Source: Deltaproteobacteria bacterium (GTDB taxonomy: Bacteria > Desulfobacterota > BSN033 > UBA1163). From it: 64,000 nucleotides of DNA. The DNA is taken from assembly GCA_018333535.1 (NCBI GenBank), contig JAGXTA010000071.1:35100-99099 (forward strand). Direction: 5' to 3'. The position numbers were made by a program, and so were the translations under genes. Every line of letters begins with the position of its first letter. The first letter of the stretch is position 1. Positions 38,420 through 63,787 of this stretch are shown one piece after another. Under the pieces are notes generated by a model. That model was not told where the DNA came from and did not search any database. It worked only from the letters and a program-made list of their open reading frames with translations.

Positions 38420-38423
38420 TATT

Positions 38424-39317: not shown

Positions 39318-39493
39318 AGTCATTAATCAGTCCATAATTATTTGGACACTTCAGATATAATCCCTCCTAACCTCCCTTTGCCAAAGGGAGGAATTCCCCT
39401 CTTTGGAAAAGAGGGGGGAGGGGAGATTTTCAGAAGAGTATATCTGCTTAATTATTGACCCCTTAGTATTTAGGGGAAGGAGGGAGAACAGGA

Positions 39494-44609: not shown

Positions 44610-44751
44610 GGAGGTTGTGCCTTAGACATTTGCCCTTCGACAGGCTCAGGACGAATGGCTAAGCGATTTATTTTAAACATCCCGTAGTCCGTTCGTGGTG
44701 AGGCTCTCGAACCATGAACGGAATTACAACCAAGTCTCAAAGGAGAAGAGG

Positions 44752-45573: not shown

Positions 45574-45585
45574 GAAGGAGTTGAT

Positions 45586-46017: not shown

Positions 46018-46046
46018 GGCATACTATGAAGAGGAGGTATGGAGGT

Positions 46047-46733: not shown

Positions 46734-46832
46734 CATAGCAATAACCGCCACAGCACATAACAAATCGCTCAAGGGGATCCGATCTTGCGACCGCACCCCT
46801 TAGCTTTTACGAAGGCCCTAAGGAGGAATAAA

Positions 46833-50378: not shown

Positions 50379-50389
50379 AACAGATTGTG

Positions 50390-50510
50390 TAAAACGGTAA
50401 CGGTTAAGATGCCCGTATCGTTAATAAAAGGTTACGTCTGTCGTCTTCTAATTTCTTAGACGTAACCTTAACCGATCACCGAAACGGGCTTCGTAGCCGT
50501 AACCTTTTTA
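50390..50510. repeat. MITE-like palindromic element copy
   Basis: It reads GGTTAAGATGCCCGTATCG ... AGGTTACGTCT-loop-AGACGTAACCT ... CGAAACGGGCTTCGTAGCCGTAACC. Confidence 0.6.
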
Positions 50511-50516
50511 AGACTC

Positions 50517-51506
50517 TTATTTCTGGAGTTGTTGCAGTCTTCTGATTCTCTCCTGAGCCTCAGAAAAAGATTGGTCCAGCTTTAAAGCTTGATTAAAGGT
50601 TTCGATGGCCTGAGAAAACATTCCGCTGGCTTCATAGGCGAGCCCTAAGTTGAAGTGAAGCCTCGCCAGTTTTTCTCGGGTCAACCCTTGAATCTGAGAG
50701 GCTTCTTTAAAGCATTGAATCGCCTGGGCGCTGTCCCCCTTCTCAAGAAAACAACTTCCAAGCATGAGGTAGCAGTCAAATTTGATCGCAGGATTCGAGG
50801 CGGCTAATTCAAACTCTGAGATGGCATAGTCAAAGAGCTCCATCTCCTTATAAGCGATCCCCAGATGATAGTGCATTTCCGAATCCTTGTCAGAGGGGGG
50901 AACTTCAGCCCCGCTATAAAGGGGTAAATTCTGAGATTCGAGGACTGAAGAGGGAAAAAGATCGGATTTATCATCGAAGGGTTTTATCTCTTCAGGTGAT
51001 GGAAAAGCCGCAGGAGAAGGAACCTCAACCGCCGGCATTGTTTTAGGGATATCCTTGGAGATATTTCTGAGGATATCTCTGGATTGCGGCGGTGCATCAG
51101 AGCCCCTCAGTGCTTTTTTCGCCTCCGGGTCATCGGGTTTTAACTCCAGGACGCTCAGGTAATAGTTTTTGGCATCTCCCGATAACCCTTCCTTGAGATA
51201 TAACCCTGCAATTTTATGAAGAGCATCAATGTGTTTTGGATTGATGGCGAGAACTTTTTTATAGATGGAGATTGCTCGCGAATTAAGATCTTCTTCCTCA
51301 TAAAGCTCTGCCAATGTCAAATATTCTGCGATCGCTTTCTCATTTTCCCCATTCCTATAATAGAGATCGCCCAGTTTTAAATAGAGGCGCGTATCTTTGG
51401 GGTCGGCCTCGATCAGTTTAATATATTCCACGATCGCCTTCTTGGGCTGGCCCTTCATGATTAATTTCTGAGCAAGGTCTAAAGTCTTCTCTTTATCGAA
51501 TGCCAA
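50517..51506 (-). CDS. TPR-repeat protein (PilF/Tgl-like candidate)
   Basis: It has at least six TPR units across 329 aa and lies between the pilY1 and mgl modules. Confidence 0.6.
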   Translation of the reverse strand: MAFDKEKTLDLAQKLIMKGQPKKAIVEYIKLIEADPKDTRLYLKLGDLYYRNGENEKAIAEYLTLAELYEEEDLNSRAISIYKKVLAINPKHIDALHKIAGLYLKEGLSGDAKNYYLSVLELKPDDPEAKKALRGSDAPPQSRDILRNISKDIPKTMPAVEVPSPAAFPSPEEIKPFDDKSDLFPSSVLESQNLPLYSGAEVPPSDKDSEMHYHLGIAYKEMELFDYAISEFELAASNPAIKFDCYLMLGSCFLEKGDSAQAIQCFKEASQIQGLTREKLARLHFNLGLAYEASGMFSQAIETFNQALKLDQSFSEAQERIRRLQQLQK

Positions 51507-51719
51507 AAGGGTCCCTCTTCTTTAAAGCATTTATTATCCAGAGCATGAAACGATTCGCATTTTGTAGCGCAAAATTTCAGTCCCGCCAATGGCGGGACGC
51601 TACGTCCTCCCTTAGATTCAAATAATACCACGCTCTCCTTAATAATTCAAAACTTAATCAAAGAACCCAAAAAAGTCAAGTTTTTAGAAAATTCCATAGA
51701 AGTCTTTGGGTTAATGGTA

Positions 51720-51860
51720 AGGGCAATGAGGCCTGTTTTAAACGATGAACGATGGACAATGAACCATGAAAAAATAGGCTGATAAACAGTTCATCGTTTA
51801 ACGTTTAACGTTCATTGTTCCTGACGGGCTTCGTCACCATAACCGTAACCCCAGAACCAT
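51720..51860. repeat. MITE-like palindromic element copy (AACGATGAACGATGGACAATGAACC ... ending GACGGGCTTCGTCACCATAACCGTAACC)
   Basis: It has the same core and terminus as the copy at 9840-9960. Confidence 0.55.
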
Positions 51861-52147
51861 ATCTATCTTCATTGTTGAGGAGAACCCCAATTAGGGAAAA
51901 GTGCCTACAATAATATCGAACATGAGACGAGAAGTAAATGATTCATTTTCGTAAGTCTTCGTAGAAATTTCTTTCCAGGTGGATAAATATTGACCAATTT
52001 TCAACCATTCATTATAATAGAGGCAATCGTATTTCGTGAAATTCATGAGACATTCTAATAGATTAAGTGATTAAGATATTTAATGCTTTTGGCACTTATT
52101 TTGCTTATTAACTTTCCGATAGGTGACGGACTCGCAAAAAGTAAAAA

Positions 52148-52250
52148 TTTCCTCATCTTGTCATTCCCGCGAAAGCGGGAATCCAGTAAAATAAAGAAGT
52201 TCTGGACTCCTGCTGGAGTTTATCCCGATGAAAATCGGGGCAGGAGTGAC
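52148..52250. repeat. palindromic repeat unit GTCATTCCCGCGAAAGCGGGAATCCAG ... CTGGACTCCTGC...GCAGGAGTGACG
   Basis: It has two hairpins with complementary termini. A related copy lies inside 34325-34420. Confidence 0.55.
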
Positions 52251-52312
52251 GGTTTTGTGGGTTTTTACGAGATCATAATAGCTAAAAATATAGCTCATCG
52301 GAAAGATTAATC

Positions 52313-53002
52313 ATGGTTAAGAATTTAAAAAAGGTTTTGATTGTTGATGATGAAGAGACATTGACATGGAGCATGTCGAAAAGCCTTTCCAAAGACAGGG
52401 ATAAATACGAGGTGCTCATTGCCAATAATGGAAAAGAAGCCCTGAACCAATTTAAGAAGAATGATATCGATCTGGTTATTTCTGACATTCGAATGCCCGA
52501 TGTCAATGGGCTGGATCTGCTGGTGAAAGTGAAGAAAGAATATCCGAAGATCAAGTTCATTATCATGACCGCTTATGGGTCCTCGGATGTTCAGAAAGAG
52601 GCGAATCGCCGGGGAGCAATTGTTTATATTGAGAAACCCTTTGAAATAAACGACATCCGGAAGATCATCATCGATCATATCGGAAAAAAGAAGGGGTTTC
52701 GGGGCACGGTGGTGGGTCTTCAATTGACCGATGTGATTCAGATGAATTGCCTTAGCCGCTTGACCACTGCATTGACCGTGACCAAAGATGGAGAAAAGGG
52801 AACGATCTATTTAAATGAGGGAGAAGTCATTCATGCGGAATGTGGGAGTCAGAAAGGGACGGATGCTTTTTACCATATTCTAAGCTGGCAGGAGGGGGAA
52901 TTTACTTTTAACATGGGAGTGACGCCTCCGATGCAGACAATCTATCAGAACTGGGAGCATCTGCTCATGGAAGGCATGCGAAGGAATGATGAAAAGATAT
53001 AA
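52313..53002 (+). CDS. response-regulator receiver fused to a PATAN (DUF4388-like) domain
   Basis: The REC domain has VLIVDDEE and an acceptor Asp in DLVISDIRMP. The C-terminus (GTVVGLQLTDVIQMNC...GTIYLNEGEVIHAE...DAFYHILSWQEGEFTF) is typical of PATAN domains found with MglA GTPases. Confidence 0.6.
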   Translation: MVKNLKKVLIVDDEETLTWSMSKSLSKDRDKYEVLIANNGKEALNQFKKNDIDLVISDIRMPDVNGLDLLVKVKKEYPKIKFIIMTAYGSSDVQKEANRRGAIVYIEKPFEINDIRKIIIDHIGKKKGFRGTVVGLQLTDVIQMNCLSRLTTALTVTKDGEKGTIYLNEGEVIHAECGSQKGTDAFYHILSWQEGEFTFNMGVTPPMQTIYQNWEHLLMEGMRRNDEKI

Positions 53003-53107
53003 AGAGATTTCTGAAAAAGTCCACAAATCTCTGATTACACGGATCAGGTAAGGATTACACAGAAGAGCGGAAGGTTGTTTTTCAGAGCTCTCTTGTAAAG
53101 GAAATCG

Positions 53108-53548
53108 ATGAACATCATCATCACAAGGGAAGATTTGAAAAAGATCACCTTTTTTTTGGACAAGGTGGTTACTTCTTCCCTTGCCCATTCGGTCCTGTTG
53201 ATCGATCGATCCGGACAGCTGATTGCCCAATACGGAGACAATCTGGAGATTGATGTTCTGTCTCTTTCCGCGCTGACCGCAGCAAACTTCGGAGCTACGG
53301 CTGAGATCGCCAAGATTCTTGGTGAAGAGGAATTCACGCTTCTTTTCCATAAAGGGAAGAGCGAAAATGTCTACTTCACCGCCGTTGGCGAACATGTCAT
53401 TATGGTCACCCTTTTCGACGATAAGACCTCTCTGGGCCTGATCAGGCTGCGAATTAATCAGATTGCCGACGAGCTTTCAAATGCCCTCGTCTCGATCTTT
53501 AAGGAGAAAAAGGAAATCCCTATTTTGGAGCCGCAGCAGCTTTTATAG
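53108..53548 (+). CDS. mglB: Roadblock/LC7-domain protein, MglB-like GAP
   Basis: It is 146 aa with the Roadblock pattern (SVLLIDRSGQLIAQYG...ALTAANFGA). It lies immediately upstream of mglA. Confidence 0.75.
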   Translation: MNIIITREDLKKITFFLDKVVTSSLAHSVLLIDRSGQLIAQYGDNLEIDVLSLSALTAANFGATAEIAKILGEEEFTLLFHKGKSENVYFTAVGEHVIMVTLFDDKTSLGLIRLRINQIADELSNALVSIFKEKKEIPILEPQQLL

Positions 53549-53567
53549 AAGAAGGAGAAACGGTTTC

Positions 53568-54194
53568 ATGCCTTTTATTAACTTCAGTAAAGACGAGATC
53601 CAATGCAAAATCGTCTATTACGGCGCCGGATTCTGCGGAAAGACTACGAATCTTCAGTATATTTTTGCGCAGATGGGCGAAGACAGCAAGGGGAAGATGG
53701 TTTCCATCGATACACGGGGAGATCGGACCCTCTTTTTCGATTTCCTATCCCTGAATTTAGGAAAGATTAGAGGGTTTGATGTCAGAGTTCAGCTTTATAC
53801 TGTTCCAGGACAGGTTCATTACGACGCCACCAGAAAATTGGTCCTAAAAGGGGTAGATGGCGTTGTTTTTGTCGCTGATTCGTTAAAGGTTCAGAGGAAG
53901 AAAAACATCGAAAGCCTTATCAATCTCGCAAAAAACCTGGCGGAGAAGGGCATCAGCATCCGAACGATTCCATTGGTCATCCAGTATAATAAACGGGACC
54001 TGGATGGGACGGATTCTGAGCTCCTTCCGGTTGAGACATTAGATAAAGATCTCAATTCCATGTTAAAAGTCCCATCCTTTTCTGCCAGCGCATTGAAAGG
54101 GGCGGGAGTGTTTGAGACCTTAAGGGAAATCAGCAAGTTGGTCGTGAAAGATGTAAGCCGAAAGATTATGCTCGTTGATCAACAAATACGTTGA
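53568..54194 (+). CDS. mglA: MglA-like Ras-family small GTPase
   Basis: It begins MPFINFSKDEIQCKIVYYGAGFCGKTTNLQYIF, which closely matches the MglA N-terminus and P-loop, and it has TVPGQ in switch II. A GAAGGAG RBS precedes it. Confidence 0.85.
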   Translation: MPFINFSKDEIQCKIVYYGAGFCGKTTNLQYIFAQMGEDSKGKMVSIDTRGDRTLFFDFLSLNLGKIRGFDVRVQLYTVPGQVHYDATRKLVLKGVDGVVFVADSLKVQRKKNIESLINLAKNLAEKGISIRTIPLVIQYNKRDLDGTDSELLPVETLDKDLNSMLKVPSFSASALKGAGVFETLREISKLVVKDVSRKIMLVDQQIR

Positions 54195-54211
54195 GCCTAA
54201 AGGGGAGATCG

Positions 54212-55357
54212 ATGACAGAAAAAACCATCGCAGAAGAGGATCTAAAAGGATTAGAAAAGGAGATCGATGCCGCTGTTGACAGGCTTTTTATAGAGAAGGG
54301 AAGAGAGCCAATGAAGAGCGCTCCAGTCAGCCCTCCGCCTCCCGATGTCTTTCAGGAGAGGAGAGAGGTCGAATGGGAAATGGTTCCGCCTGCTCCTTTG
54401 ACTCCTTCAGCTTCCAGCCCTCTTGAAAAATTGGAGACACAGCTCCTTTCACTGGAATGGGAGATCACCAAAGAGAATCTCGGAAGGACAGTGGAGGAAG
54501 TCCTCGCCCTGTGGAAGGGCTTTAAGGAGTCACCGGACATCTCCAGCGTATTAAATCGAATGGTCAGGGTATTAAATTATATGATCCAGAATGAAGAAGG
54601 AATTCAACCCCACCTCATTCGGTTTTTGCTCGATTCAAAGGAAACGCTTAAGCTTTTAATGAGATTGGAGGCAGAAGACAACCTCAACGTTTATAAGAAA
54701 TTGGCCCATGCCGGCATCGAGGCAAGATTTTCATGCCTGGAAGAGTTCCAGGAGGTCAAATCCAAACCCCCTTCTGTTAAAGTGGAAGCGCCTGAGGGGA
54801 AAGCAGAGCCTTCTCTGATGAAACCAGAATTGGTAGAAAAGATCATCCAGAGAATGGAGTCCTTCTCAGAAAGACTGAACGAAATGATAAAAACAATGAA
54901 TCAGCATCTATCCGCTCACGAAAGGCCGGCAGAAAGCCCTGGACCACGAATCGGGGATGGGAGTCCTTTGAAGACGAGAGTAACCGTCTTCAAAACAGGG
55001 GAGAAATTGTTCGGAGTTGAGAGCGATAAGGTCTTTAAACTATTCAAAGTTTCCAGTCCACATACTAAAAAAATGATTCAATCGGGGAATGTCCGACTAA
55101 AAGGGCTTGAGGTGAGGATGATCGATTTAGGGAATTTGTTTTCCATCTCCGGAATGGATCAGGAGGAAGAGCGGCAGGTGTTGATCCTTAAAGGGGACGG
55201 AGAATATAAAGGTCTGATGATGGATAGGGTTTTGAATCGGCTATACGGTTTTTTGGAGCAGGGAGGGGATTCCAGCGCCCATCTTCTGGGGATGATCCGC
55301 TGGACTTATGAAGATCTTCCTATGAAAATTCCCATTTTGGACTTTGAGAAACTTTAA
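54212..55357 (+). CDS. hypothetical protein with a C-terminal CheW-like domain
   Basis: The last roughly 130 aa (RVTVFKTGEKLFGVESDKV...VRLKGLEVRMIDLGNLF...RQVLILKGDGEYKGLMMDRVLN) follow the CheW-like pattern. The N-terminal half is Pro-rich and shows no recognisable motif. Confidence 0.45.
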   Translation: MTEKTIAEEDLKGLEKEIDAAVDRLFIEKGREPMKSAPVSPPPPDVFQERREVEWEMVPPAPLTPSASSPLEKLETQLLSLEWEITKENLGRTVEEVLALWKGFKESPDISSVLNRMVRVLNYMIQNEEGIQPHLIRFLLDSKETLKLLMRLEAEDNLNVYKKLAHAGIEARFSCLEEFQEVKSKPPSVKVEAPEGKAEPSLMKPELVEKIIQRMESFSERLNEMIKTMNQHLSAHERPAESPGPRIGDGSPLKTRVTVFKTGEKLFGVESDKVFKLFKVSSPHTKKMIQSGNVRLKGLEVRMIDLGNLFSISGMDQEEERQVLILKGDGEYKGLMMDRVLNRLYGFLEQGGDSSAHLLGMIRWTYEDLPMKIPILDFEKL

Positions 55358-55390
55358 GAGCTGGATCACCGGATAAGTCGGGATCGTTCG

Positions 55391-56533
55391 ATGACAGGAA
55401 GTATGGGCCAGGCAGAGAAGAGAGAGAGTGAAGGCGTACGGTTGAATCAGGCATTGGAAAGCAGCACAAATATCACCGAGAGCCTCATTGAAAGCATTGG
55501 GAGTGGAATTATTATTACCGAAATGAATGACACGATTACCTATATTAACCAGGCCGGGGAGAAGATATTGGGCTATTCGAAAGGGGAGGTCATCGGAAAA
55601 CCTTTTGGCCTTTTCGGATTAAATGAGAAGCTGAATGTTTCACACTCCTTTCTTGATCAATCCGATAACCTCGATACGAGAAGAGAAGGCCGGATGAATA
55701 GAAAGGAGGGGAACGAAATCCCTGTCGGATTTACGATCAATTACCACCTGAGCTTAAGCGGCGAAGCCATCGGGAAAATTATCATTTTTCGTGATCTGAC
55801 AAAGGTCTATCGAATTCAGGAAGAGATATTAAAGATGGATCGACTGGTCTCTCTTGGAAAACTGGCTTCCGGTATTGCGCATGAGATCCGCAACCCCCTC
55901 GCGGGGATAAAGACCACAGCCCAGGCGCTCGGTGAGGAGATGGGAAAGGAGGATCCGAAAAGGGAATATTTAAATCGCATCACGAAAGAGATCGATCGCT
56001 TAAATGAACTTCTCAAGACCTTCTTCTCTTTTGCTAAACCGCAGACGCTTCTTCTCGTTCCCTGTCATATCAAGGAGATCATCAATGCCATTATTCCGTT
56101 TCTCATCAAAGAGATTGCCGATAAAGGAATTCGGTTTGTGGAAACCTATCATCCGAAGCTTCCGAGGATAAGGGTTGATAAGATACAGATGCACCAGGCC
56201 TTTTTAAATCTCTTTTTGAACGCCATTCAGGCCATGCCTGGCGGAGGTGAGCTTAAAATTGAAGCGAACCCTGTGGTCATCCCTTCGTTGGATGGTTCCA
56301 TGCAGAATTATGTGAGGGTGGTTGTCTCGGATACAGGAAAAGGCATTCCTCCCCACATTCTTCCAAAGATTTTCGACCCTTTTTTTACGACCAAGCCCAA
56401 AGGGATTGGATTAGGTCTTTCCATCACCTATCAAATCATTAAGAAGCACGGAGGCACCATTAAAGTCGATAGCCAATGGGAAAAAGGAACTTCTTTTATC
56501 ATTAATTTGCCGGAGACATTTGAAAATTTATGA
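55391..56533 (+). CDS. cytoplasmic PAS-domain sensor histidine kinase (PilS2/NtrB-like)
   Basis: It has a PAS domain (ITYINQAGEKILGYSKGEVIGKPF), a HisKA box (ASGIAHEIRNPLAGI), N, G1 and G2 boxes, and no TM segment. Confidence 0.8.
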   Translation: MTGSMGQAEKRESEGVRLNQALESSTNITESLIESIGSGIIITEMNDTITYINQAGEKILGYSKGEVIGKPFGLFGLNEKLNVSHSFLDQSDNLDTRREGRMNRKEGNEIPVGFTINYHLSLSGEAIGKIIIFRDLTKVYRIQEEILKMDRLVSLGKLASGIAHEIRNPLAGIKTTAQALGEEMGKEDPKREYLNRITKEIDRLNELLKTFFSFAKPQTLLLVPCHIKEIINAIIPFLIKEIADKGIRFVETYHPKLPRIRVDKIQMHQAFLNLFLNAIQAMPGGGELKIEANPVVIPSLDGSMQNYVRVVVSDTGKGIPPHILPKIFDPFFTTKPKGIGLGLSITYQIIKKHGGTIKVDSQWEKGTSFIINLPETFENL

Positions 56534-57906
56534 AACCATCCATTCTCATAGTCGATGACGATGAAGTGATGCAAGAGTCACTCTATGATGTTTTAAAGAA
56601 GGGAGAATATGAAGTCTATTCAGTGGGTTCCGGGAGCGAAACCCTTTCGGTCATCAAAAAAAATATCATAGATCTCATTCTTCTTGACATGAGGCTGCCC
56701 GATTGGGATGGCCTGGAACTTCTTAAAAAGGTTAAAGAATTCGATACTGAAATATTAGTGATTATTATGACTGCCTATTCGGATGTGCAGACCGCAGTTT
56801 CAGCAATGAAATCAGGAGCTTACCATTATATCAATAAGCCTTTTGATTTGGAAGAGCTAAAACTTCTGATTGAAAAAGGGTTGGAAAGAAAGAGCCTTAT
56901 TAATGAAGTGAGAAGACTTCATCGGCAGCAGAATGAAGGAAATCAAAAAAGCCAGATATTTGGCACAACTTCCCAGATTCATTATATTAAAGAGTTGATC
57001 GGAATGGTTAGTAAGACGAACAAGACATCTGTCCTGATCCAGGGAGAGAGTGGGACGGGTAAGGAACTGGCCGCCAATGCGATTCATTACAACAGTAAGA
57101 GGGCAAATAAACCCCTGATGAAGATTAACTGTAGCGCCATACCGGATTCACTTTTAGAATCAGAGCTTTTCGGTTATGAGAAGGGAGCCTTTACAGACGC
57201 CAAAGCGACGAAAAAAGGGCTCTTCGAATTGGCAGATGGAGGAACGGTATTTCTGGATGAAATCGGAGATATGAAGCCCTTTCTTCAATCAAAAATTTTA
57301 AGAGTGATTGAAAATCAATCCTTTATGCGAGTGGGGGGAGAAAGGGAAATTAAGGTTGATGTCCGAATTGTTGCGGCAACCAATAAGGACCTGGAATCGC
57401 TTGTGAGGGAAGGGCTTTTCCGAAAGGACCTCTATTACCGGCTTAAAGTGATGGTGGTTGAGATGCCTTCCCTTCGCGAGAGGGGAGAGGATATTTTACT
57501 TCTTTCCAATTTGTTTATAGAAGAGATCAATCGAGAATACGGGAAAAATATCAATGGGTTAACAGATGATGCCAAAAAGATAATGGTCCAATATCCATGG
57601 CCCGGGAATGTGCGGGAATTGAAGAATGTCATCGAGAGAGCCATGATTCTTACCGAACAGCCCTATATCACACCCAAACAACTTCCGTTTGAATTAAGAC
57701 AGAAAGAAGGATATGACCTTAAGGCTGTAGAATTAAATCCGTTTGAGATTTCTGAAATGATGCCATTAGAAGCATTGGAAAAAATCCACCTTTCAAATGT
57801 ATTAAAAAAATTGGAATGGAATAAGTCTAAGGCTTCAAAAATACTTGGGATTTCGAGAGCGACCCTGAGGGCAAAAGTTAAGAAATATCATCTGTCGGAT
57901 AATTAA
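56530..57906 (+). CDS. sigma-54-dependent NtrC-family response regulator (PilR2-like)
   Basis: It has a REC domain, [14 protein letters not shown] and a C-terminal HTH. It overlaps the kinase stop by 4 nt. Confidence 0.9.
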   Translation: MKPSILIVDDDEVMQESLYDVLKKGEYEVYSVGSGSETLSVIKKNIIDLILLDMRLPDWDGLELLKKVKEFDTEILVIIMTAYSDVQTAVSAMKSGAYHYINKPFDLEELKLLIEKGLERKSLINEVRRLHRQQNEGNQKSQIFGTTSQIHYIKELIGMVSKTNKTSVLIQGESGTGKELAANAIHYNSKRANKPLMKINCSAIPDSLLESELFGYEKGAFTDAKATKKGLFELADGGTVFLDEIGDMKPFLQSKILRVIENQSFMRVGGEREIKVDVRIVAATNKDLESLVREGLFRKDLYYRLKVMVVEMPSLRERGEDILLLSNLFIEEINREYGKNINGLTDDAKKIMVQYPWPGNVRELKNVIERAMILTEQPYITPKQLPFELRQKEGYDLKAVELNPFEISEMMPLEALEKIHLSNVLKKLEWNKSKASKILGISRATLRAKVKKYHLSDN

Positions 57907-58000
57907 TGTGAAATATTAAATGGTTATTCATTAATGTTAATATAAATTATTAAATATTTAAGGCACCTTATTAAAATTGATGGAGTTAATAAATTTTTCC

Positions 58001-58030
58001 TTGACTTTTTACAAAATATAATAATAATTT
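58001..58030 (+). promoter_or_regulatory. putative sigma-70-type promoter in the AT-rich region upstream of pilM
   Basis: A TTGACT -35-like hexamer is followed by AT-rich -10 candidates (TATAAT/AATAAT). The spacing is ambiguous. Confidence 0.3.
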
Positions 58031-58073
58031 ATTAGACAACCTGTCTAAAATTGAACGACTTGAGGTAACTCAT

Positions 58074-59132
58074 ATGATTTTGGGAAGAAAAAAGGGAGTC
58101 ATTGGGTTGGATATAGGGTCCAGTTCGATCAAACTGGTTGAATTGGGGGAGAGTAAAAACACTTACAAATTGGTGAATTTGGGGATCTCTCCATTACCCC
58201 CGGAAGCGATCGTGGATGGAGCCTTGATGGACTCGGTAACCATTATCGATGCCATCCGCGAATTGATCAGCAATACAAAGACAAAGACAAAAGATGTGAT
58301 CACCTCTGTCTCCGGTCATTCGGTGATTGTCAAGAAGATCAGCCTCCCATTGATGTCAGATGCCGAATTGGAAGAATCAATCCAGTGGGAGGCCGAACGG
58401 TATATCCCATTCGACATCAACGATGTGAATATCGATTTTCAGATCTTTGGCTCCAGCGCTGAAAACCCGGAGGTCATGGATGTGGTTTTGGTGGCTGCCA
58501 AAAAAGACATCATCAATGACTATGTCTCCGTGATCATCGAATCAGGATTAAACCCGGTCACCATCGATGTCGATGCTTTCGCCATCGAGAATATGCTTTC
58601 GGTGAATTATGAGATTGGAAAAGATGAAACCGTAGCGATGGCGAATGTCGGGGCCAGCATCACCAACATTAATATCCTGAAGAACAACATGACCGCTTTT
58701 ACGAGAGATATTTTTAAGGGAGGAAATCAAATTACCGAGGAGATTCAGAGGCAACTCCACATCGATTACGAAGAGGCCGAAAAAATTAAGGTGGGGAGCA
58801 AGATCGATGCCGCTGCACAGCCGGTCATTCAGGATGTTTTAAAGTCGGCTTCGGAATCTTTATCCATGGAAATAGGAAACTCCATAGAATTTTTCCAATC
58901 GACATCGACTTATGAAAAAATCAGCAAACTTTATTTAAGCGGAGGGGGATCGAAAATTAAAGACTTCGATATCCTCTTGCAGCAGCAGATCGGCATACCC
59001 GTTGAAATCGTCAACCCTTTTAAAAAGATCGAGTATAGCGAAAAGCACTTCGATCTCGAATATTTAAGGGAAATCGGCCCGATGATGGCGGTGGGGGTCG
59101 GACTCGCCACCCGAAAGGTAGGAGATAGATGA
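58074..59132 (+). CDS. pilM: type IV pilus assembly protein PilM (actin-like ATPase fold)
   Basis: It has GLDIGSSSIKLVEL and is 352 aa. It is the first gene of the pilMNOPQ order. Confidence 0.9.
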   Translation: MILGRKKGVIGLDIGSSSIKLVELGESKNTYKLVNLGISPLPPEAIVDGALMDSVTIIDAIRELISNTKTKTKDVITSVSGHSVIVKKISLPLMSDAELEESIQWEAERYIPFDINDVNIDFQIFGSSAENPEVMDVVLVAAKKDIINDYVSVIIESGLNPVTIDVDAFAIENMLSVNYEIGKDETVAMANVGASITNINILKNNMTAFTRDIFKGGNQITEEIQRQLHIDYEEAEKIKVGSKIDAAAQPVIQDVLKSASESLSMEIGNSIEFFQSTSTYEKISKLYLSGGGSKIKDFDILLQQQIGIPVEIVNPFKKIEYSEKHFDLEYLREIGPMMAVGVGLATRKVGDR

Positions 59133-59671
59133 TAAAGATCAATCTACTTCTGACGAGAAAAGAAAAGAAGAAGGTCGGAGTCAAGAAGGAGTTTGTGATC
59201 CTCATCGTTTCGGTGGGGCTCCTGGCGATCCTGTTGGCCGGCCTTCATTGGAAAATCGGGAAAGAAAAAGAGGATATGGTGACCCAGATCTCAGAGACGA
59301 AAAAAGAGATTGCGCGCTATAAGTCTTTGGCGGCTGAAGTGACGAAAGCCAAGGAGGCCCAAAAAACCTTACAGGACAAGTTGAACATCATCAACTCATT
59401 AAGGAAGGGTAAAGAAACGTCTGTCCGGGTTCTGGACGGGATCAGTGTCGATAAACCGGAGAAACTCCAGTTGGAACTGATGAAGAAAGAGGGATTGAAA
59501 CTCGGAATTGAAGGGATCGCTCTGGATGATGAGACCATCGTCCAGTTTATGACCAATCTGAAAAAGTCAAAACTTTTTAAAAATGTTGATCTGGTTGTGA
59601 GCGAACAGATTGAGCAGAACAAAATCAAGTTTAAAAAGTTTATTCTTTCATGTGAAATCATCTCGGAGTAA
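59129..59671 (+). CDS. pilN: PilN
   Basis: It starts MIKINLLL, has a single TM helix and a coiled coil, is 180 aa, and overlaps the pilM stop. Confidence 0.7.
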   Translation: MIKINLLLTRKEKKKVGVKKEFVILIVSVGLLAILLAGLHWKIGKEKEDMVTQISETKKEIARYKSLAAEVTKAKEAQKTLQDKLNIINSLRKGKETSVRVLDGISVDKPEKLQLELMKKEGLKLGIEGIALDDETIVQFMTNLKKSKLFKNVDLVVSEQIEQNKIKFKKFILSCEIISE

Positions 59672-59683
59672 AAGGGGGAGGAG

Positions 59684-60298
59684 ATGGCCATTACGGTAAA
59701 TACAATTTTAGAGCTCCCGTCATCCAAAAAAATCTTAATTTTGATCGGGATATTATGCGTTATTGCGGGAATGTATTTCTACCTTTTTTTCATTCCGGTG
59801 CAGAATGATTTAAAAGTATTAAGGGTGGAATTGGATAAGCTAATCAAGGAATTGAATGAAGGGAAGATGATCACAAGAGATCTGGAAAAATTTAAGGGTC
59901 AGATTGAGAAGTTGAATGCGGAATTGACGAATGCGTTGACTCAACTCCCCAATGAGAAGGAGATTCCTGAAATCCTGAAAAGCATCTCACGCCTTGGCAA
60001 AGAGTCGAACCTGGAATTCACCCTCTTCAAACCCAAACCTGAAGAGCCTCAGCAGTTTTATGCAAGAGTCCCCATCGATCTGGTGATGGTGGGAAGCTAT
60101 CATAACACGGGGCTTTTCTTTGATAAGATCGGGAAGCTCCCGAGAATTATAAATGTCGTTGACTTCAATATGTCACGAGCCAAGGAAGTTAAGGGGAGGG
60201 AGGCGGATGTTGTCATTCGAACATCCTGCCTCATCACCACCTACCGGTTCTTGGAAAAGAAAGCCGAAGAAAAGAAAGGTGACGGAAAAACTCCGTGA
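59684..60298 (+). CDS. pilO: PilO
   Basis: It has an N-terminal TM helix, a coiled coil and a C-terminal alpha/beta domain. Its position in the operon supports the call. Confidence 0.65.
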   Translation: MAITVNTILELPSSKKILILIGILCVIAGMYFYLFFIPVQNDLKVLRVELDKLIKELNEGKMITRDLEKFKGQIEKLNAELTNALTQLPNEKEIPEILKSISRLGKESNLEFTLFKPKPEEPQQFYARVPIDLVMVGSYHNTGLFFDKIGKLPRIINVVDFNMSRAKEVKGREADVVIRTSCLITTYRFLEKKAEEKKGDGKTP

Positions 60299-60332
60299 AA
60301 AACAGAGACAAAGGAAAAGGGAGACGACGTCG

Positions 60333-60881
60333 ATGTTCCAAAAAAGCAATAAATTTCATTTCGTCTGGGGGATATTGAGCTTACTCTTTTTTGTGGCAAG
60401 CTGTGGAGGAGAATCCGTTCCTCCTCCTCAAAAAGGAGCGATTCCAAAGGCCGTGGTTAAAAAAGAGGAGCCGGTTAAGGTGGCAGATCAAAAAGAACCC
60501 CTCAAAAAGGAAGAACCGGAATATCAATACACCCCTGCCGGTAAACCGGATCCATTTAAGCCTTTTATTGAATTGACGCCCGTGCGGGAAAGAGTGAGGA
60601 CCACTCCGCTTACACCTTTGCAGAAATATGATATCAGCCAGCTAAAATTGGTTGCTATCATTTCAACTCCTGATGGGAATGTCGCTTTAGTCGAAGATTC
60701 AGCGGGAAGAGGATATTTTATAAAAAGAGGAACCGAAATCGGAAAGAACGAAGGGAAGGTTACAAAAATTTTAAAAGATCGAGTTATCATCGAGGAACTC
60801 TATGAGGATGTTTTAGGCAAGGTGAAAAAGAGCGAAATTCCATTATTTCTTCACAAAATCGAAGAAGGGGGAGAATCATGA
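60333..60881 (+). CDS. pilP: PilP lipoprotein
   Basis: It has the lipobox FFVASCGG, a Pro/Lys-rich linker and a C-terminal beta domain. The start is MFQKSNKF; the ORF is open from 60153. Confidence 0.6.
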   Translation: MFQKSNKFHFVWGILSLLFFVASCGGESVPPPQKGAIPKAVVKKEEPVKVADQKEPLKKEEPEYQYTPAGKPDPFKPFIELTPVRERVRTTPLTPLQKYDISQLKLVAIISTPDGNVALVEDSAGRGYFIKRGTEIGKNEGKVTKILKDRVIIEELYEDVLGKVKKSEIPLFLHKIEEGGES

Positions 60882-63787
60882 AAGCTTTTTTGATGGTTAG
60901 AGTGGTGTTTATCACCTTAATCTCATTGATCATCAGCGGTTGTGCCACCGGGGGGGATGTGGCAAAGCCTCCGAGCGAGGCTTCGCCTCCTGTTGTCTCG
61001 GTGGCGAAGGCCAATCCTTCCATCATCCAAAAGATCGCTTTCACAGAAGAAGAAAAATTTACAAGAATTCATATCGAAGGATCGGAAACCCTTCCGCCCC
61101 CTTTGTATAAACTCTCCCATGAACCGTTGAAAATCGTGGTGGATCTTACCCATATCGACCTTAAACAGGTGAGGAGCACTTTGAAGGTGGACAATGGGAC
61201 AATCTCCGAAGTTTTAACCACTCAATATGACGACAAAGGCCGGATCGAAATCGGCCTCCTTCAGATGACCCCTTTCAACATCTCCAGGGAAGATAAAAAC
61301 GTCTTCATTGACATTGAAAAAGTAAAGAAGATCATAGAGACAAAGGAAGTCAAAAAAGAGGAAGTGATTGAAAAGGCAAAAGAGGGGGACCTTTCGACCC
61401 CTGAGACGAAAAAAGAGGCCGCCGTTTCTTCATCTCCTGCTGTAATGGTTTCAACCCAGGAAAAGACGAACAAGGCAAAAGAGATTATCAATTTTTCCCT
61501 GGAAGATAAAAAAGATCACATCGATTTTAATATTTTAGCAGACGGAAAAGTTGAAAATTATAATTTATTTAAACTGGACGGTCCTCCGCGCCTGGTTTTG
61601 GACATCTGGGAAGTGGGGACTCAATACCCGAAAAAGTCAATTCGGGTTTCAAATCCGTTCATTAAGGAAGTCCGAATCGGACAACATCAGGACAAATTAA
61701 GACTGGTCTTCGACTCATCGAAACCTCAACTCCCAGCCTACCAGATCAATCGAATTGACGATAAACTGGTCGTATCGGTTGGAAATGTACCTCAGCCCTC
61801 TGAACCTCAAATCTTGCTGCAGGAGAAGGGGTCTGAAAAGTTAGCCGTTCCTAAATTGCAGTTGGCCTCTTCGACTTCTCCTGCTGTCAAGGAGAAGGTG
61901 TCGCCGCCATCCCCGGAAGTATCCTCAAAGCCGGTAAAAGCAAAGATTGCCCTGAAAGAGACCGATTTTAAACAAATAAACGATAAATCACGAATCGTCT
62001 TGAGCCTTAGCGGAGATCCACAATTTGAAACCTATCGTGTTTCGGAAAAGGTGATCGCCATTGATATCAAGAACGCTTTTGCCCCGAAACATCTCCAGAG
62101 GGGAATGAATACGAGCGAGTTTGATAGCGCTGTCAATCATATTGACATTAAGAACGTAAAGAATGACATCAGGATATTGTTTAAATTGAGGGAAGAGACA
62201 CCCTATGAAACCACCAAGGAAGGCAATACCCTCTTTTTTGATATTGAAAAGCCGAAGAAGGTTGTGACGAAATTAGAGGCTCCCACGCCTCCTCCCGAAC
62301 TCCCTAAGGTAACTCCACCACCTCCTCCTAAAGAAGAAGTGAAAGAAGAGGTAAAAGCAGACGTAACGAAAGTGGAGGAGAAACCTGCCGTTGAAGCCAA
62401 GAAAGAGGAGATGGCGCCTCCTAAAGTTGAAGAAAAACCCGCTCCTCCGCCTGCGGTTGCAAAACCTGCGGAAGAGGTCGGGCCGGAAAAGATGTATACG
62501 GGGAGAAAAGTCTCTCTTGATTTTAAGGATGCAGACATTAAAAATATTTTACGGCTGATTGCAGAGGTGAGCAATTTCAATATCATCACAGCAGATGATG
62601 TGTCAGGGAAGATCACGATGAGATTGGTCGATGTGCCCTGGGATCAGGCATTAGATGTGATTCTTCAATCCCGGAATCTCGGAATGGTTCAGGTTGGAAA
62701 TGTAATAAGGATTGCTCCTATTGAAACCCTGAACAGAGAGAGCCATGCCAAATTGGAGGCGAAACGGGCAAAGGAAAGATTGGAAGACATGGTGACCGAG
62801 CTCATTCCGATCAACTATGCCACCGCGAAGGATATCATTCCTCAGATTAAAGGGATTTTAAGCGAACGGGGCGATGTCAAGGTGGACGATCGGACTAACA
62901 TCCTTATCATTAAGGATATTCCGAAAAACATCCCTGCGGTAAAAAATTTAGTTAAATCGCTTGATACAAAGACCCCTCAAGTCGTGATTGAAGCAAGAAT
63001 CGTCGAAGCCAATGTTGGGTTCCAGAGAGAGCTGGGCGTATCATGGGGATTTGAAACCTATGCGAAGTCTAAGAAGGATGGAGCTATCTCGAAAGAGATT
63101 ATCGTCGGGGGCGGCTTATCTACCCCAGGCACAACACCCGGAGCGTCGATCGGGTCAACCCTGGGCTCCACTGCGAGCAAGGTCGTTGATCTTGCTGCGG
63201 TTGCCCAAGGAGGTGTCGCCGGCGCCACCGGGCAGGCAGGTGTGATCGAGTTTCTGCTCACATCGATTTACGGGCTGAGGCAGTTGGATGTCGCTATTTC
63301 CGCCCACGAAAATAAAGGAGACGCAAAGGTTATCTCCAGTCCCAAGATCGCGACACTTCACAACAAGGAGGCTTCAATCGAGCAGGGCTTGAGAATCCCT
63401 TACCGGAAATTGACCACGGAGGGAATCATCACCACCGATTTCATCGACGCAAACCTTAAATTGACGGTGACTCCTCTTGTGACGAATGACGGAAATGTCA
63501 AGCTAACAATTAAAGCCAAAAAAGATGCACCGGAGTGGGCCCGAACGGTCGATGGCGTCCCAAGCATTGACAAGAAAGAGGCTATTACTGAGGTGCTCGT
63601 CAAAGATAATGGAGTGGTTGTCATTGCCGGAGTTTATTCCATTGAGAAGAGCGAAGGAGAAGAAGGCGTTCCTCTCTTAAGCAAAATTCCTTTGTTAGGC
63701 TGGTTATTTAAGAGAGAGGCAAAGGAGGATAGAAGGAGAGATCTGCTGATATTTATTTCACCTAAGGTCGTTAAAGATCAGGTCTGA
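60878..63787 (+). CDS. pilQ: PilQ secretin (969 aa) with N-terminal AMIN-like domains and a Pro/Glu/Lys-rich linker
   Basis: The C-terminal secretin domain has GVPLLSKIPLLGWLFK and NLLIFISPKVV. The lipobox-like N-terminus reads LIISGCATGG. Confidence 0.85.
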   Translation: MKAFLMVRVVFITLISLIISGCATGGDVAKPPSEASPPVVSVAKANPSIIQKIAFTEEEKFTRIHIEGSETLPPPLYKLSHEPLKIVVDLTHIDLKQVRSTLKVDNGTISEVLTTQYDDKGRIEIGLLQMTPFNISREDKNVFIDIEKVKKIIETKEVKKEEVIEKAKEGDLSTPETKKEAAVSSSPAVMVSTQEKTNKAKEIINFSLEDKKDHIDFNILADGKVENYNLFKLDGPPRLVLDIWEVGTQYPKKSIRVSNPFIKEVRIGQHQDKLRLVFDSSKPQLPAYQINRIDDKLVVSVGNVPQPSEPQILLQEKGSEKLAVPKLQLASSTSPAVKEKVSPPSPEVSSKPVKAKIALKETDFKQINDKSRIVLSLSGDPQFETYRVSEKVIAIDIKNAFAPKHLQRGMNTSEFDSAVNHIDIKNVKNDIRILFKLREETPYETTKEGNTLFFDIEKPKKVVTKLEAPTPPPELPKVTPPPPPKEEVKEEVKADVTKVEEKPAVEAKKEEMAPPKVEEKPAPPPAVAKPAEEVGPEKMYTGRKVSLDFKDADIKNILRLIAEVSNFNIITADDVSGKITMRLVDVPWDQALDVILQSRNLGMVQVGNVIRIAPIETLNRESHAKLEAKRAKERLEDMVTELIPINYATAKDIIPQIKGILSERGDVKVDDRTNILIIKDIPKNIPAVKNLVKSLDTKTPQVVIEARIVEANVGFQRELGVSWGFETYAKSKKDGAISKEIIVGGGLSTPGTTPGASIGSTLGSTASKVVDLAAVAQGGVAGATGQAGVIEFLLTSIYGLRQLDVAISAHENKGDAKVISSPKIATLHNKEASIEQGLRIPYRKLTTEGIITTDFIDANLKLTVTPLVTNDGNVKLTIKAKKDAPEWARTVDGVPSIDKKEAITEVLVKDNGVVVIAGVYSIEKSEGEEGVPLLSKIPLLGWLFKREAKEDRRRDLLIFISPKVVKDQV

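Follow-up and report, generated by a model that had tools for sequence, protein, structure and literature searches.

Gene content and conservation of the locus

The locus lies in a 64-kb window (the whole stretch of DNA that was analysed) and is built around four genes, which encode a response regulator joining a receiver (REC) to a PATAN domain (229 aa), MglB, MglA and a protein of 381 aa, hereafter protein X (Table 1). Minor-pilin, PilX and PilY1 genes are found on one side of the set and pilMNOPQ on the other, with a PAS histidine kinase and a sigma-54 response regulator encoded between X and pilMNOPQ. Upstream of the operon lie PilD and, in two sets, minor pilins, PilX and PilY1. The initial annotation had drawn the same four open reading frames at the same positions and placed the module inside type IV pilus genes, and both observations are borne out.

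Table 1. Features of the locus, numbered by position in the window
Feature	Position	Strand	Supporting evidence
Short TPR protein (329 aa), similar to the N-terminus of SgmX	50517..51506	-	NCBIfam SgmX, E 8.6e-39
Sigma-70-like promoter, TTGACC-N17-TATAAT	51990..52018	+	11/12 consensus matches
Predicted sigma-54 -24/-12 promoter, TGGCACttattTTGC	52090..52104	+	Sole exact match in the 64-kb window
Response regulator, N-terminal NtrC-type receiver and C-terminal PATAN (DUF4388/PatA_N)	52313..53002	+	Pfam, E 5.5e-26 and 3.7e-24
MglB, Roadblock/LC7 GTPase-activating partner of MglA	53108..53548	+	Pfam Robl_LC7, E 4e-11
MglA, group-1 Ras-like GTPase	53568..54194	+	M. xanthus MglA structures 6hjh/5ymx, E 5e-67, residues 1-197
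Protein X, 381 aa	54212..55357	+	Acidic helix motif, five-helix bundle, long helix, CheW/P5-like domain
Conserved N-terminal motif of X, EEDLKGLEKEIDAAVDRLFIEK, then variable Pro-rich linker	54224..54298	+	Best-conserved segment of X
Five-helix bundle of X	54422..54748	+	Motifs LSLEWEI, LDSKET, YKKLAxxGIEARF; bundle pLDDT 84-93
Divergent CheW/CheA-P5-like domain of X	54971..55354	+	Pfam CheW, 25.7 bits (cut-off 23.5)
PAS histidine kinase, NtrB/AtoS-like	55391..56533	+	PAS, HisKA, HATPase_c domains
Sigma-54-dependent response regulator, NtrC/AtoC/PilR-like	56530..57906	+	REC, Sigma54_activat, HTH_8
pilM, pilN, pilO, pilP, pilQ	58074..63787	+	Pfam PilM_2 (E 3.6e-81), PilN, PilO, PilP, Secretin+AMIN

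Comparison with M. xanthus structures upholds the earlier assignment of both Mgl proteins, MglB matching 6h5b/6izw with E 1.5e-29. For MglA, the alignment shows the P-loop GAGFCGKTT and the segments GDRTLFFDF and YTVPGQ, and residues R53, T54, T78 and Q82 are kept, R53 being the intrinsic Arg finger and TxxGQ replacing DxxGQ. The protein begins MPFINFS and not MFINFS as first spelled, a trivial slip. Homology at the sequence level identifies MglA as a GTP-dependent polarity switch and MglB as its Roadblock-type GTPase-activating partner. The proposed fusion of a receiver to a PATAN domain also stands, with REC at residues 8-119 followed by PATAN at 131-228. The canonical receiver residues D12/D13, D58, T86 and K108 can be read from the translation, and the phospho-acceptor site is, as judged by homology, complete.

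Pfam detects no HAMP or membrane domain in the PAS kinase, which matches the AtoS model with E 4e-87, below the cut-off of the model. The domain composition of the kinase and the sigma-54 regulator fits a PilS/PilR-type pair; among NCBIfam models the highest-ranking are AtoS/AtoC and NtrC, none of which reaches its cut-off. Another pair of a kinase and a sigma-54 regulator is encoded at 30405-34246, nearer to pilin genes.

Divergent from the operon, the TPR protein matches positions 2-117 of the 1065 positions of the SgmX model with its residues 4-119, scoring 133.6 bits against an equivalog cut-off of 1800; the next TPR family reaches 1e-22. A full-length SgmX was rejected, as the protein is 329 aa long, whereas SgmX has ~1060 aa and 14 TPRs. 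Nearly all related loci also carry this gene in the opposite orientation, at 51-79% identity.

The operon is tightly spaced: mglB is directly upstream of mglA, and the successive intergenic gaps starting from the REC-PATAN gene measure 105, 19, 17 and 33 nt, followed by a 4-nt overlap between the kinase and sigma-54 regulator genes. Terminator-like matches on the + strand occur only inside the coding sequence of the regulator. The sigma-70-like promoter is preceded by a CCAnTGG..AAATA block that is at least 80% conserved over 24 aligned upstream regions, and in 28 related loci, which lie on 27 distinct contigs, the REC-PATAN gene is preceded by the motif GG[CT]A[CT]-N5-TTGC, usually ~77 nt ahead of its start codon. 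These motifs predict transcription of the operon from the conserved sigma-70-like and sigma-54 promoters. The operon would probably be controlled by its own sigma-54 regulator and PAS kinase, sigma-54 control being suggested at the level of the motif.

All 32 informative loci, taken from species-representative MAGs of Thermodesulfobacteriota (Syntrophorhabdus, Syntrophaceae), share one gene order: the TPR gene on the opposite strand, then REC-PATAN, MglB, MglA, X, kinase, sigma-54 regulator and pilMNOPQ. The arrangement is therefore no chance juxtaposition, and the synteny extends to both the kinase and the sigma-54 regulator genes. Sequence conservation differs between the members: among close loci MglA is 86-96% identical and REC-PATAN 76-90%, X only 35-58%.

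The two halves of protein X

The open reading frame of X opens at 54191; its start was set to the ATG at 54212, which lies behind a GGGGAG ribosome-binding site and is in line with the homologues, which begin MTEK. We found 635 homologues of X. The AF2 model of the whole protein is of low quality overall (pLDDT 60), and conservation is uneven along the protein, with mean identity of 78% in the N-terminal motif, 69% in the bundle, 58% in the CheW-like domain and 28-34% in the linkers.

The initial annotation had described a '380-aa' protein with a CheW-like C-terminus and made its fold a matter for HMM and structure prediction; both support it. The Pfam match of X exceeds the cut-off while spanning only model positions 2-90 of 138, CheW is matched by 29/30 members of the family, and the family profile matches CheW 2qdl with E 8.8e-6. 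The AF2 model of residues 250-388 has a pLDDT of 83, and its top 18 Foldseek matches are without exception CheW or CheA-P5, led by E. coli CheW 6s1k_C (E 9.7e-9, TM 0.69); after these 18, E exceeds 0.6. Homology and the predicted model together place the C-terminus of X in the CheW/CheA-P5 fold. We rejected X as an ordinary coupling CheW, since it is a 381-aa multidomain protein and not a single-domain protein of ~150-170 aa beside CheA/MCP genes. The E38/R62 pair (E. coli numbering) is functionally important in CheW. In the HMM alignment this pair of E. coli CheW (2ho9) corresponds to K/K in the X family, and the R62-equivalent column holds K, Q or N over the family.

The helical N-terminal half, overlooked in the initial annotation, is the more informative part of X. 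Its N-terminal motif is redetected in many distant relatives and is present twice in one of them (P0194). The five-helix bundle has no Pfam model and matched no PDB chain by sequence profile; among PDB folds it comes closest to CheA P1 domains (probability 0.98-1.0, target-normalised TM 0.53-0.62, E 0.01-0.25), and X thus resembles a kinase-less CheA. This likeness is weak and could be that of a generic up-down helical bundle. In outline, the modelled X looks like a CheA without the P2-P4 kinase core and the phospho-accepting His, a resemblance of fold only. The family alignment contains no conserved His in the bundle, and neither X nor the family members match the Hpt, HATPase_c or H-kinase_dim HMMs, on which grounds X was rejected as a CheA. 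The invariant polar residues on the bundle are E82, E89, W90, D148, T152, K169 and R179.

A profile of X residues 1-250, used to search for distant relatives, recovered 448 cluster representatives carrying the helical region. Ten distant members that were checked have no Pfam matches or sub-threshold ones. Architectures vary: some proteins have a CheW-like end, others repeat the helical domain two or three times and carry long acidic tails, and still others end differently, and proteins from cable bacteria are among the relatives that have no CheW-like domain. We examined the neighbourhoods of eight distant relatives, one of which is cut by a contig end and was left out; the remaining seven come from unrelated neighbourhoods and all directly follow Robl_LC7 and/or GTPase genes, and three translated GTPases adjoining distant relatives are true MglA. 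Since relatives with no detectable CheW-like domain still directly follow MglB and/or MglA genes, the Mgl-linked part of X is its helical N-terminal half.

Protein X appears undescribed. Literature searches returned no description of a conserved gene after mglA with this helical domain, of its CheW-like fusion, of the fixed position in the pilus cluster or of the sigma-54 promoter. The accessible portions of Makarova 2006 and Wuichet & Sogaard-Andersen 2014 likewise contain no helical-domain gene after mglA, no CheW-like fusion, no fixed pilY1-pilMNOPQ position and no sigma-54 promoter. PATAN beside mglBA, on the other hand, is already known from those two surveys (Makarova 2006; PMC4316618), so that, for PATAN, the contiguous encoding that had been presented as unusual is not new.

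Signal input and the role of protein X

A tightly spaced unit within a type IV pilus supercluster, together with its strong conservation, makes a role in pilus polarity the natural reading. We propose that the locus encodes a type IV pilus polarity module that is compact and self-contained and is shared by the Syntrophorhabdus/Syntrophaceae clade of Thermodesulfobacteriota, and give this explanation as a whole, the adaptor role of X included, a probability of about one half. Protein X is read here, on the basis of gene adjacency and analogy, as an adaptor of the Mgl proteins whose function would be similar to that of RomX. RomX, a bundle of helices, sits between MglA-GTP and RomR-REC (bioRxiv 10.1101/2024.02.20.581209); by analogy, the acidic N-terminal helix and the bundle of X may bind MglA-GTP and/or MglB, and a receiver domain opposite. 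The CheW/P5-like domain is a candidate lineage-specific docking module that would tether the complex to a further partner. The analogy has a point against it in that the bundle of X has five helices and RomX three, with no sequence similarity. RomR is encoded in only 26/60 genomes that have MglA and MglB (PMC3441718), and other partners are therefore expected.

The best NCBIfam matches of the REC-PATAN receiver are NosR, NtrC and AtoC rather than CheY, and it shares 43% identity with the receiver of the sigma-54 regulator in the same operon. A receiver of the NtrC type points to an NtrB-type kinase, not CheA, as its partner. Judging by receiver family and adjacency, the NtrB-type PAS kinase, or a similar one, would phosphorylate it, and the PATAN domain may then act on the pilus motor; cyanobacterial PATAN is an output domain that binds PilB1-NTD and PilC-NTD (bioRxiv 10.1101/2021.06.11.447907). 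The SgmX-N-like TPR protein may help to license PilB at the pole marked by MglA, by analogy with SgmX, whose N-terminal TPRs activate pilus formation (PMC11580455). The same source lists two PATAN proteins, MXAN_3211 and MXAN_4965, among candidates beside SopA.

The initial annotation had wired a Frz-like chemosensory input to MglA. Genes for CheA, MCP, CheB and CheR are found neither in the 64-kb window nor among the Pfam-annotated genes flanking three close relatives, a coarse scan for MCP-tip motifs over 48 loci (744 kb) returned nothing, and FrzE (CheA-REC), FrzCD (MCP), FrzA/B, FrzF/G and FrzZ genes are absent from the window and related loci. These results, the K/K pair, the NtrC-type receiver, the lack of a conserved His for phosphotransfer and the members that keep their place after MglB and/or MglA genes without a CheW-like domain all speak against this wiring, and in our reading X does not function as a Frz-type coupling protein. 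Were it one after all, its CheW/P5-like domain would sit in an array of MCP and CheA encoded elsewhere in the genome, and Frz-like signalling would pass to MglA/MglB and REC-PATAN and produce pilus-pole reversals. We consider this unlikely, even though the CheW fold is complete, moderately conserved, under purifying selection (58% identity) and compatible with array binding, and the best fold matches of the bundle are to CheA P1. In R. sphaeroides, CheA3 consists of P1 and P5 and functions inside an array. Also in favour of such coupling are a PatA_N-REC-CheB gene ~6 kb off at a distant locus (L042), the derivation of cyanobacterial PatA-type PATAN regulators from chemosensory systems (bioRxiv 10.1101/2021.06.11.447907) and the action of Frz on the Mgl module of M. 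xanthus (PMC4316618; PMC3441718).

Protein X might instead regulate the MglA cycle catalytically, as a GEF or co-GAP replacing RomR/RomX or RomY where lineages lack them. Its placement directly after mglB-mglA is invariable, the bundle carries the invariant polar residues listed above, and RomR is missing from many MglAB genomes (PMC3441718), all of which speak for a catalytic regulator. The protein, however, resembles no known GEF or GAP fold, its long disordered linkers and repeated motifs are more scaffold-like, and the GEF role of RomR/RomX is itself disputed in recent work (PMC13408092); we hold a catalytic role to be quite improbable.

The adjacency to mglA would be incidental if X served the downstream two-component system, as a kinase accessory or a pseudo-phosphotransfer protein. 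The kinase does follow X directly in almost all close relatives, 33 nt separating the two genes, and the bundle is P1-like. Yet a conserved His and an Hpt HMM match are both lacking, the distant relatives keep their position after MglB and/or MglA genes without a kinase/regulator pair downstream, and one related locus (L011) retains mglB-mglA-X with no kinase/regulator match between X and pilM. This makes a function confined to the two-component system very improbable, and the Mgl-associated adaptor remains our preferred reading.

Comparison with known polarity and chemosensory systems

The locus resembles the M. xanthus polarity module in its MglA and MglB homologues, SgmX-N-like TPR protein, response regulator and type IVa pili. 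In M. xanthus, mglBA lies apart from the genes of its partners (PMC4316618), whereas the candidate partners here are contiguous and inside the pilus cluster. No homologues of RomR, RomX, FrzS or SopA were detected in the cluster. In place of RomR, which consists of REC, a Pro-rich region and RomR-C, the regulator is REC-PATAN, and in contrast to M. xanthus SgmX the TPR protein lacks the C-terminal MglA-binding repeats. The proposed functional analogue of the bundle is RomX (PDB 8ZNA), which is also small, all-helical and linked to MglA and to a receiver-domain protein; RomX, at 11 kDa, is a protein on its own, whereas X has several domains and a CheW-like end. The fold of 8ZNA is absent among the 50 fold matches listed for the bundle, and we rejected a RomX fold given this absence among the matches listed, the five helices of the AF2 model and the lack of a PDB sequence match.

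With CheW, X shares the predicted double beta-barrel of its C-terminal CheW/P5 domain (two intertwined SH3-like barrels). Its general layout, in which a linker joins a P1-like bundle to a P5-like domain and the kinase core is missing, matches that of R. sphaeroides CheA3. Like FrzB, a divergent CheW (PMC6952110), X departs from the canonical CheA-binding design. It differs from CheW and from a kinase-less CheA in having no phospho-accepting His, Hpt match, E38/R62 pair or neighbouring chemosensory genes, and in that its helical domain forms a family of its own linked to MglB and MglA genes.

The cyanobacterial PixG, PixE and LsiR (Tax/Pix) likewise combine PATAN with a phosphorylatable receiver and act in the control of type IV pilus polarity, PATAN being the likely output to PilB/PilC, and Tax/Pix operons also encode a CheW-domain protein together with the PATAN regulator. 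The domain order is reversed relative to these PatA-type proteins, the receiver here being N-terminal and NtrC-type, and the operon, which contains no CheA or MCP gene, combines the regulator with MglA/MglB. In this pairing the locus agrees with the PATAN-MglB/MglA neighbourhoods reported by Makarova et al. 2006 and Wuichet & Sogaard-Andersen 2014, where, as here, a PATAN gene stands beside mglB/mglA.

The mgl operon among pilus genes

Six closely spaced genes on the + strand, spanning 52313-57906, encode a response regulator with a PATAN domain (REC-PATAN), MglB, MglA, a protein directly after MglA that we call X, a PAS kinase and a sigma-54 regulator. Pilus genes lie on both sides, and the first 28 kb of the window hold polysaccharide biosynthesis genes. 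The open reading frames, Pfam domains and structure matches confirm the coordinates and domain calls of the initial annotation. In REC-PATAN the receiver is N-terminal and the PATAN domain C-terminal; the DUF4388/PATAN match spans the whole Pfam model, and the translation contains the complete phospho-acceptor set (D12, D13, D58, T86 and K108). MglA keeps the P-loop, R53/T54 and the YTVPGQ switch-2 motif. The listed ORF of X opens with TTG at 54191, but the ATG at 54212 has a GGGGAG ribosome-binding site in front of it and homologues begin with MTEK, so we adopt the shorter product. Pfam finds no HAMP or membrane domain in the PAS kinase. The HAMP kinase and sigma-54 regulator encoded after PilD may be the actual pilin-regulating PilS/PilR pair. 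When the TPR protein is compared with the SgmX model, the N-terminal 117 positions are matched (E 8.6e-39). The PilY1-like proteins of the two adjacent minor-pilin sets have 1181 and 1197 aa, and sigma-54-like sites with one mismatch, at 37340 and 43627, directly precede each set.

Features of the operon and its surroundings (window positions)
Feature	Position	Strand	Details
PilD prepilin peptidase	29579		upstream of operon
HAMP histidine kinase and second sigma-54 response regulator	30405-34246		upstream, after PilD
Minor pilins, PilX and PilY1, first set	37339-43503		upstream
Minor pilins, PilX and PilY1, successive set	43820-50378		upstream
TPR protein	50517-51506	-	329 aa
Sigma-70-like promoter	51990-52018		TTGACC-N17-TATAAT
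Sigma-54 -24/-12 element	52090-52104		TGGCACttattTTGC, TGGCAC-N5-TTGC; exact match; 72 nt downstream of sigma-70-like site
REC-PATAN response regulator	52313-53002	+	229 aa; Response_reg E 5.5e-26 (8-119), DUF4388/PATAN E 3.7e-24 (131-228), Pfam
MglB	53108-53548	+	Robl_LC7 E 4e-11; M. xanthus MglB structures E 1.5e-29
MglA	53568-54194	+	M. xanthus structures E 5e-67 over residues 1-197
X	54212-55357	+	ATG start with ribosome-binding site; 381 aa
PAS-HisKA-HATPase kinase	55391-56533	+	Pfam domains
REC-sigma54-HTH regulator	56530-57906	+	4-nt overlap with kinase gene
pilM, pilN, pilO, pilP, pilQ	58074-63787		downstream of operon

The region between the divergent TPR gene and the operon measures 806 nt and contains two promoter-like sites. 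The sigma-54 element is the only exact match of its kind within the window. In 28 related loci, on 27 distinct contigs, it recurs before the REC-PATAN gene, most often 77 nt from the start codon. In an alignment of 24 upstream regions, both promoters and a CCAnTGG..AAATA block just upstream of them show conservation of at least 80%. We infer that the six genes form an operon with dual sigma-70/sigma-54 control, plausibly autoregulated by its own sigma-54 regulator. Terminator-like matches on the + strand fall only inside the regulator coding sequence, and no Rfam family is found in 50000-58500 at E <= 0.1. Insertion of a hairpin repeat element makes the operon leader about 145 nt longer than that of most relatives. 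This element (52150-52250) comprises the hairpin TCATTCCCGCGAAAGCGGGAATCC and a second hairpin, CCCCGATGAAAATCGGGG; two related copies lie in opposite orientation at 34339-34416. A 75-aa ORF at 52083-52310 overlies the element and was discarded as spurious. A perfect 13-nt inverted repeat (TTAAACGATGAAC / GTTCATCGTTTAA, arms 38 nt apart, 51738-51801) is situated in the same 806-nt region, on the TPR-gene side of the promoters.

Architecture of X

The layout of X was derived from a family alignment and a full-length AF2 model, with residues numbered on the 388-codon ORF. The C-terminus had been annotated as a CheW domain, and this fold is borne out. The Pfam match itself barely exceeds its threshold (25.7 bits, cut-off 23.5) and covers positions 2-90 of the 138 in the model, but 29 of 30 family members match CheW, the best at E 7e-9, and the family profile matches the CheW structure 2qdl at E 8.8e-6. 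The domain was also modelled separately, with a deeper alignment than that of the full-length model (residues 250-388, 112 sequences, pLDDT 83). All of the best 18 PDB matches of this model are CheW or CheA-P5, the next match having E > 0.6, and E. coli CheW (6s1k_C) is matched at E 9.7e-9 and TM 0.69. The C-terminus of X is thus CheW-like as judged by profile and predicted fold. It is also divergent: E38 and R62 of E. coli CheW both align with lysine in the HMM alignment, and the R62-equivalent column reads K, Q or N across the family.

The N-terminal half is helical. Residues 15-36 form a nearly invariant acidic helix, EEDLKGLEKEIDAAVDRLFIEK (the N motif), followed by a variable Pro-rich linker; residues 79-181 form a five-helix bundle (pLDDT 84-93) with invariant LSLEWEI, LDSKET and YKKLAxxGIEARF motifs. 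After the bundle come a second linker, a long helix (residues 212-242) and the CheW-like domain. The full-length model has a pLDDT of 60 and was used for the confident helical bundle only. The bundle has no Pfam model, and its closest PDB folds are CheA P1 domains (1i5n, 3kyj and 8c5v_C; probability 0.98-1.0, target-normalised TM 0.53-0.62, E 0.01-0.25). On this modelled fold, X resembles in outline a CheA lacking the P2-P4 core, a likeness of shape only. Some JGI pipelines name family members 'CheA'. CheA3 of R. sphaeroides, a P1+P5 protein, has a similar outline, a comparison that draws on the titles of 3kyj and 3kyi among the fold matches. The N motif LEKEIDAAVDRLF resembles the CheY-P-binding N-terminus of FliM (LSQAEIDALL), which is at most a tentative lead.

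A phosphorelay role of the bundle was considered and rejected: neither X nor its family members match an Hpt HMM, a profile search finds no PDB chain similar in sequence to residues 1-250, and family conservation reveals no conserved histidine in the bundle. At the end of the long helix, QHLSAHERP (54902-54922, residues 238-244) superficially resembles a HisKA H-box. At least half of the family has its histidines H239 and H243, but the distant half has lost them, which makes a phospho-acceptor role unlikely. Homology of the bundle to RomX finds no support among the 50 PDB fold matches listed or in the PDB sequence search.

Close and distant relatives

We found at least 635 homologues of X. A scan of species-representative genomes yielded 33 loci, all from MAGs labelled Thermodesulfobacteriota, Deltaproteobacteria, Syntrophorhabdus or Syntrophaceae, and the window proteins were placed on them by tblastn. 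Wherever a locus is long enough, the order is kept: the TPR gene on the opposite strand, then REC-PATAN, MglB, MglA, X, kinase, sigma-54 regulator and pilMNOPQ. MglA stands immediately upstream of X in 32 of 32 informative loci. Identity across the close loci is 35-58% for X, 86-96% for MglA, 76-90% for REC-PATAN and 67-90% for the kinase; by this measure X is by far the fastest-evolving member of the operon. Within X, mean identity to the window falls from 78% in the N motif to 69% in the bundle, 58% in the CheW-like domain and 28-34% in the linkers. In the most distant relative, Deltaproteobacteria bacterium RBG_16_54_11 (L038, 3784-11154), the interval from the TPR gene to mglB is expanded: it contains an additional Roadblock-like gene and codes for a protein of PATAN alone, a REC-PATAN of 371 aa extended at its C-terminus, and a protein of 340 aa in which two stretches are PATAN-like. 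The X homologue there has 428 aa and 23% identity, and retains the CheW-like end.

With a profile built on residues 1-250 of X, a search of 1.84 billion cluster representatives yielded 448 proteins at E <= 1e-3, whose architectures we mapped with HMMs built from the X family. About 70 representatives combine the N motif, bundle and CheW-like domain; in others, two or three bundles precede very long acidic repeat tails (800-1400 aa), or the N motif and bundle are joined to other C-termini. Nine of ten distant members scanned (700-1400 aa) have no Pfam match at E <= 0.001 and the tenth has sub-threshold matches only, so these large relatives supply no functional label. The double-bundle acidic proteins occur in cable bacteria (Candidatus Electronema, Electrothrix), where they are annotated 'hypothetical protein'. 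In Candidatus Electronema sp. JM (L039, 6876-11960), and likewise for P0199 and P0207, proteins of 1100-1400 aa right after mglB-mglA have two bundles and a long acidic tail of LDSFFxFDDE-type repeats, and lack a CheW-like domain.

The genomic context was examined for eight distant members, one of which (L046) is uninformative, as its contig ends 177 nt upstream. The other seven all lie directly after a Roadblock and/or small-GTPase gene. Roadblock and GTPase genes precede P0198 (L039, amid rplI-dnaB-leuS-lptE housekeeping genes) and P0229 (L047); a Roadblock gene precedes P0194 (L040, adjoining PilB-like ATPases and a PilZ protein) and P0210 (L042); PatA_N, Roadblock and GTPase precede P0195 (L043) and P0250 (L048). 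In L044, PatA_N and, further on, a GTPase are followed by P0219, which has a CheW-like end, then HTH and pilMNOPQ. Three of the adjacent GTPases were translated and are bona fide MglA, with GDRTLFFDF and YTVPGQ. From these contexts and the varied C-termini it follows that the Mgl-linked part of X, by gene context, is the N-terminal helical half, and that the CheW-like domain is a variable addition. L044 (2276-13491, GCA_015493505.1) represents a second, unrelated lineage with mglA-X directly before pilMNOPQ. An HTH_3 gene stands there in the place of the kinase/sigma-54 regulator pair, and upstream are a PATAN-DUF8082 protein, a Cache-HAMP protein without a signalling domain and a 412-aa protein.

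Input, mechanism and known polarity systems

The initial annotation proposed that this gene arrangement would physically link a Frz-like chemosensory input to MglA. We find no evidence for such an input. Chemosensory genes are seen neither in the window nor among the Pfam-annotated genes around three close relatives, and a coarse MCP-tip motif scan of the window and 48 related loci (744 kb) returned nothing. The distant locus L042 has a PatA_N-REC-CheB gene about 6 kb from its X relative. Against NCBIfam, the REC-PATAN receiver best matches NosR, NtrC and AtoC (E about 1e-24), with CheY at 1e-15; its identity to the receivers of the two sigma-54 regulators is 43% for the co-operonic one and 40% for the second. 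By these matches the receiver is of the NtrC type, which suggests, without proving it, that its phosphorylation would suit a kinase of the NtrB type (the adjacent PAS kinase, for instance) better than a CheA. Three features speak against a canonical coupling role of X: the absence of nearby chemosensory genes, the lysine pair at E38/R62 and an NtrC type of receiver. Its CheW-like fold could still plug into a real chemoreceptor array encoded elsewhere in the genome, which we regard as unlikely. The observation made in the initial annotation is confirmed, and its interpretation holds in part: the polarity module and the CheW fold are real, evidence for the Frz-like input was not found, and the PATAN-mglBA association had already been reported.

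We read X as an Mgl-associated adaptor in a pilus polarity module, at a probability of roughly one half. MglA and MglB, by homology, form the polarity switch; an NtrB-type kinase would phosphorylate REC-PATAN on D58, the PATAN domain would act on PilB/PilC by analogy with cyanobacterial work, and the SgmX-N-like TPR protein would aid PilB licensing. The N motif and bundle of X may bind MglA-GTP and/or MglB, perhaps also the receiver, in a RomX-like manner, as suggested by analogy and by adjacency in 32 + 7 loci, and the CheW/P5-like domain would dock the complex to a further, putative partner. X acting catalytically, as a GEF or co-GAP, we consider slightly less probable than coupling to an array, and a role of X in the service of the two-component system encoded downstream of it highly improbable. 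More broadly, and tentatively, the N motif and LSLEWEI bundle may define an unannotated family, widespread as the third member of mglB-mglA operons of Thermodesulfobacteriota (Syntrophorhabdus/Syntrophaceae MAGs, cable bacteria) and of metagenomic lineages, which could recruit or regulate MglA where RomR/RomX is absent, with a P1-like bundle and, here, a P5-like fusion.

PATAN proteins adjoining mglB/mglA are described by Makarova (2006) and by Wuichet & Sogaard-Andersen (2014; PMC4316618), which also places mglA of Myxococcus and Bdellovibrio away from partner genes. In Synechocystis the output domain is PATAN, with PilB1-NTD and PilC-NTD as its binding partners; PatA-type regulators have their origin in chemosensory systems (bioRxiv 10.1101/2021.06.11.447907). 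MglA of M. xanthus recruits PilB via SgmX, whose activating function lies in the N-terminal TPRs, and two PATAN proteins are among the M. xanthus candidates listed beside SopA (PMC11580455). RomX, a bundle of three helices, sits between MglA-GTP and the receiver of RomR (bioRxiv 10.1101/2024.02.20.581209), and RomR occurs in only 26 of the 60 genomes that encode both MglA and MglB (PMC3441718). In the literature searched, of incomplete coverage, no account was found of a CheW-like or helical protein encoded behind mglA, an absence of evidence. Novelty seems to lie in the conserved helical-domain protein that follows mglA, in its resemblance in outline to CheA, in the fixed place within the pilus supercluster and in the sigma-54 promoter with its conservation.

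Since 2006, PATAN and MglA have been associated in genomes without an explanation, and the operon suggests a path from kinase to receiver and from PATAN to PilB/PilC, gated by MglA. It offers a parts list for a minimal pilus polarity circuit. Since the helical domain follows MglB/MglA genes in every informative case, it is a concrete candidate for MglA recruitment or regulation where RomR/RomX is absent, including in the gliding cable bacteria. If the helical-family reading is true, part of a chemosensory kinase would have been put to new use in a polarity circuit of type IV pili that runs on a small GTPase.

MglA and MglB are the model for switchable front-rear polarity in bacteria, with a mechanism known almost entirely from Myxococcus. 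There, the genes for the partners RomR/RomX, SgmX, FrzS, SopA and Frz are scattered over the genome and were found singly. Here the switch, REC-PATAN, an SgmX-like TPR protein, X and a dedicated two-component system lie in or beside a single conserved operon between pilY1 and pilMNOPQ.
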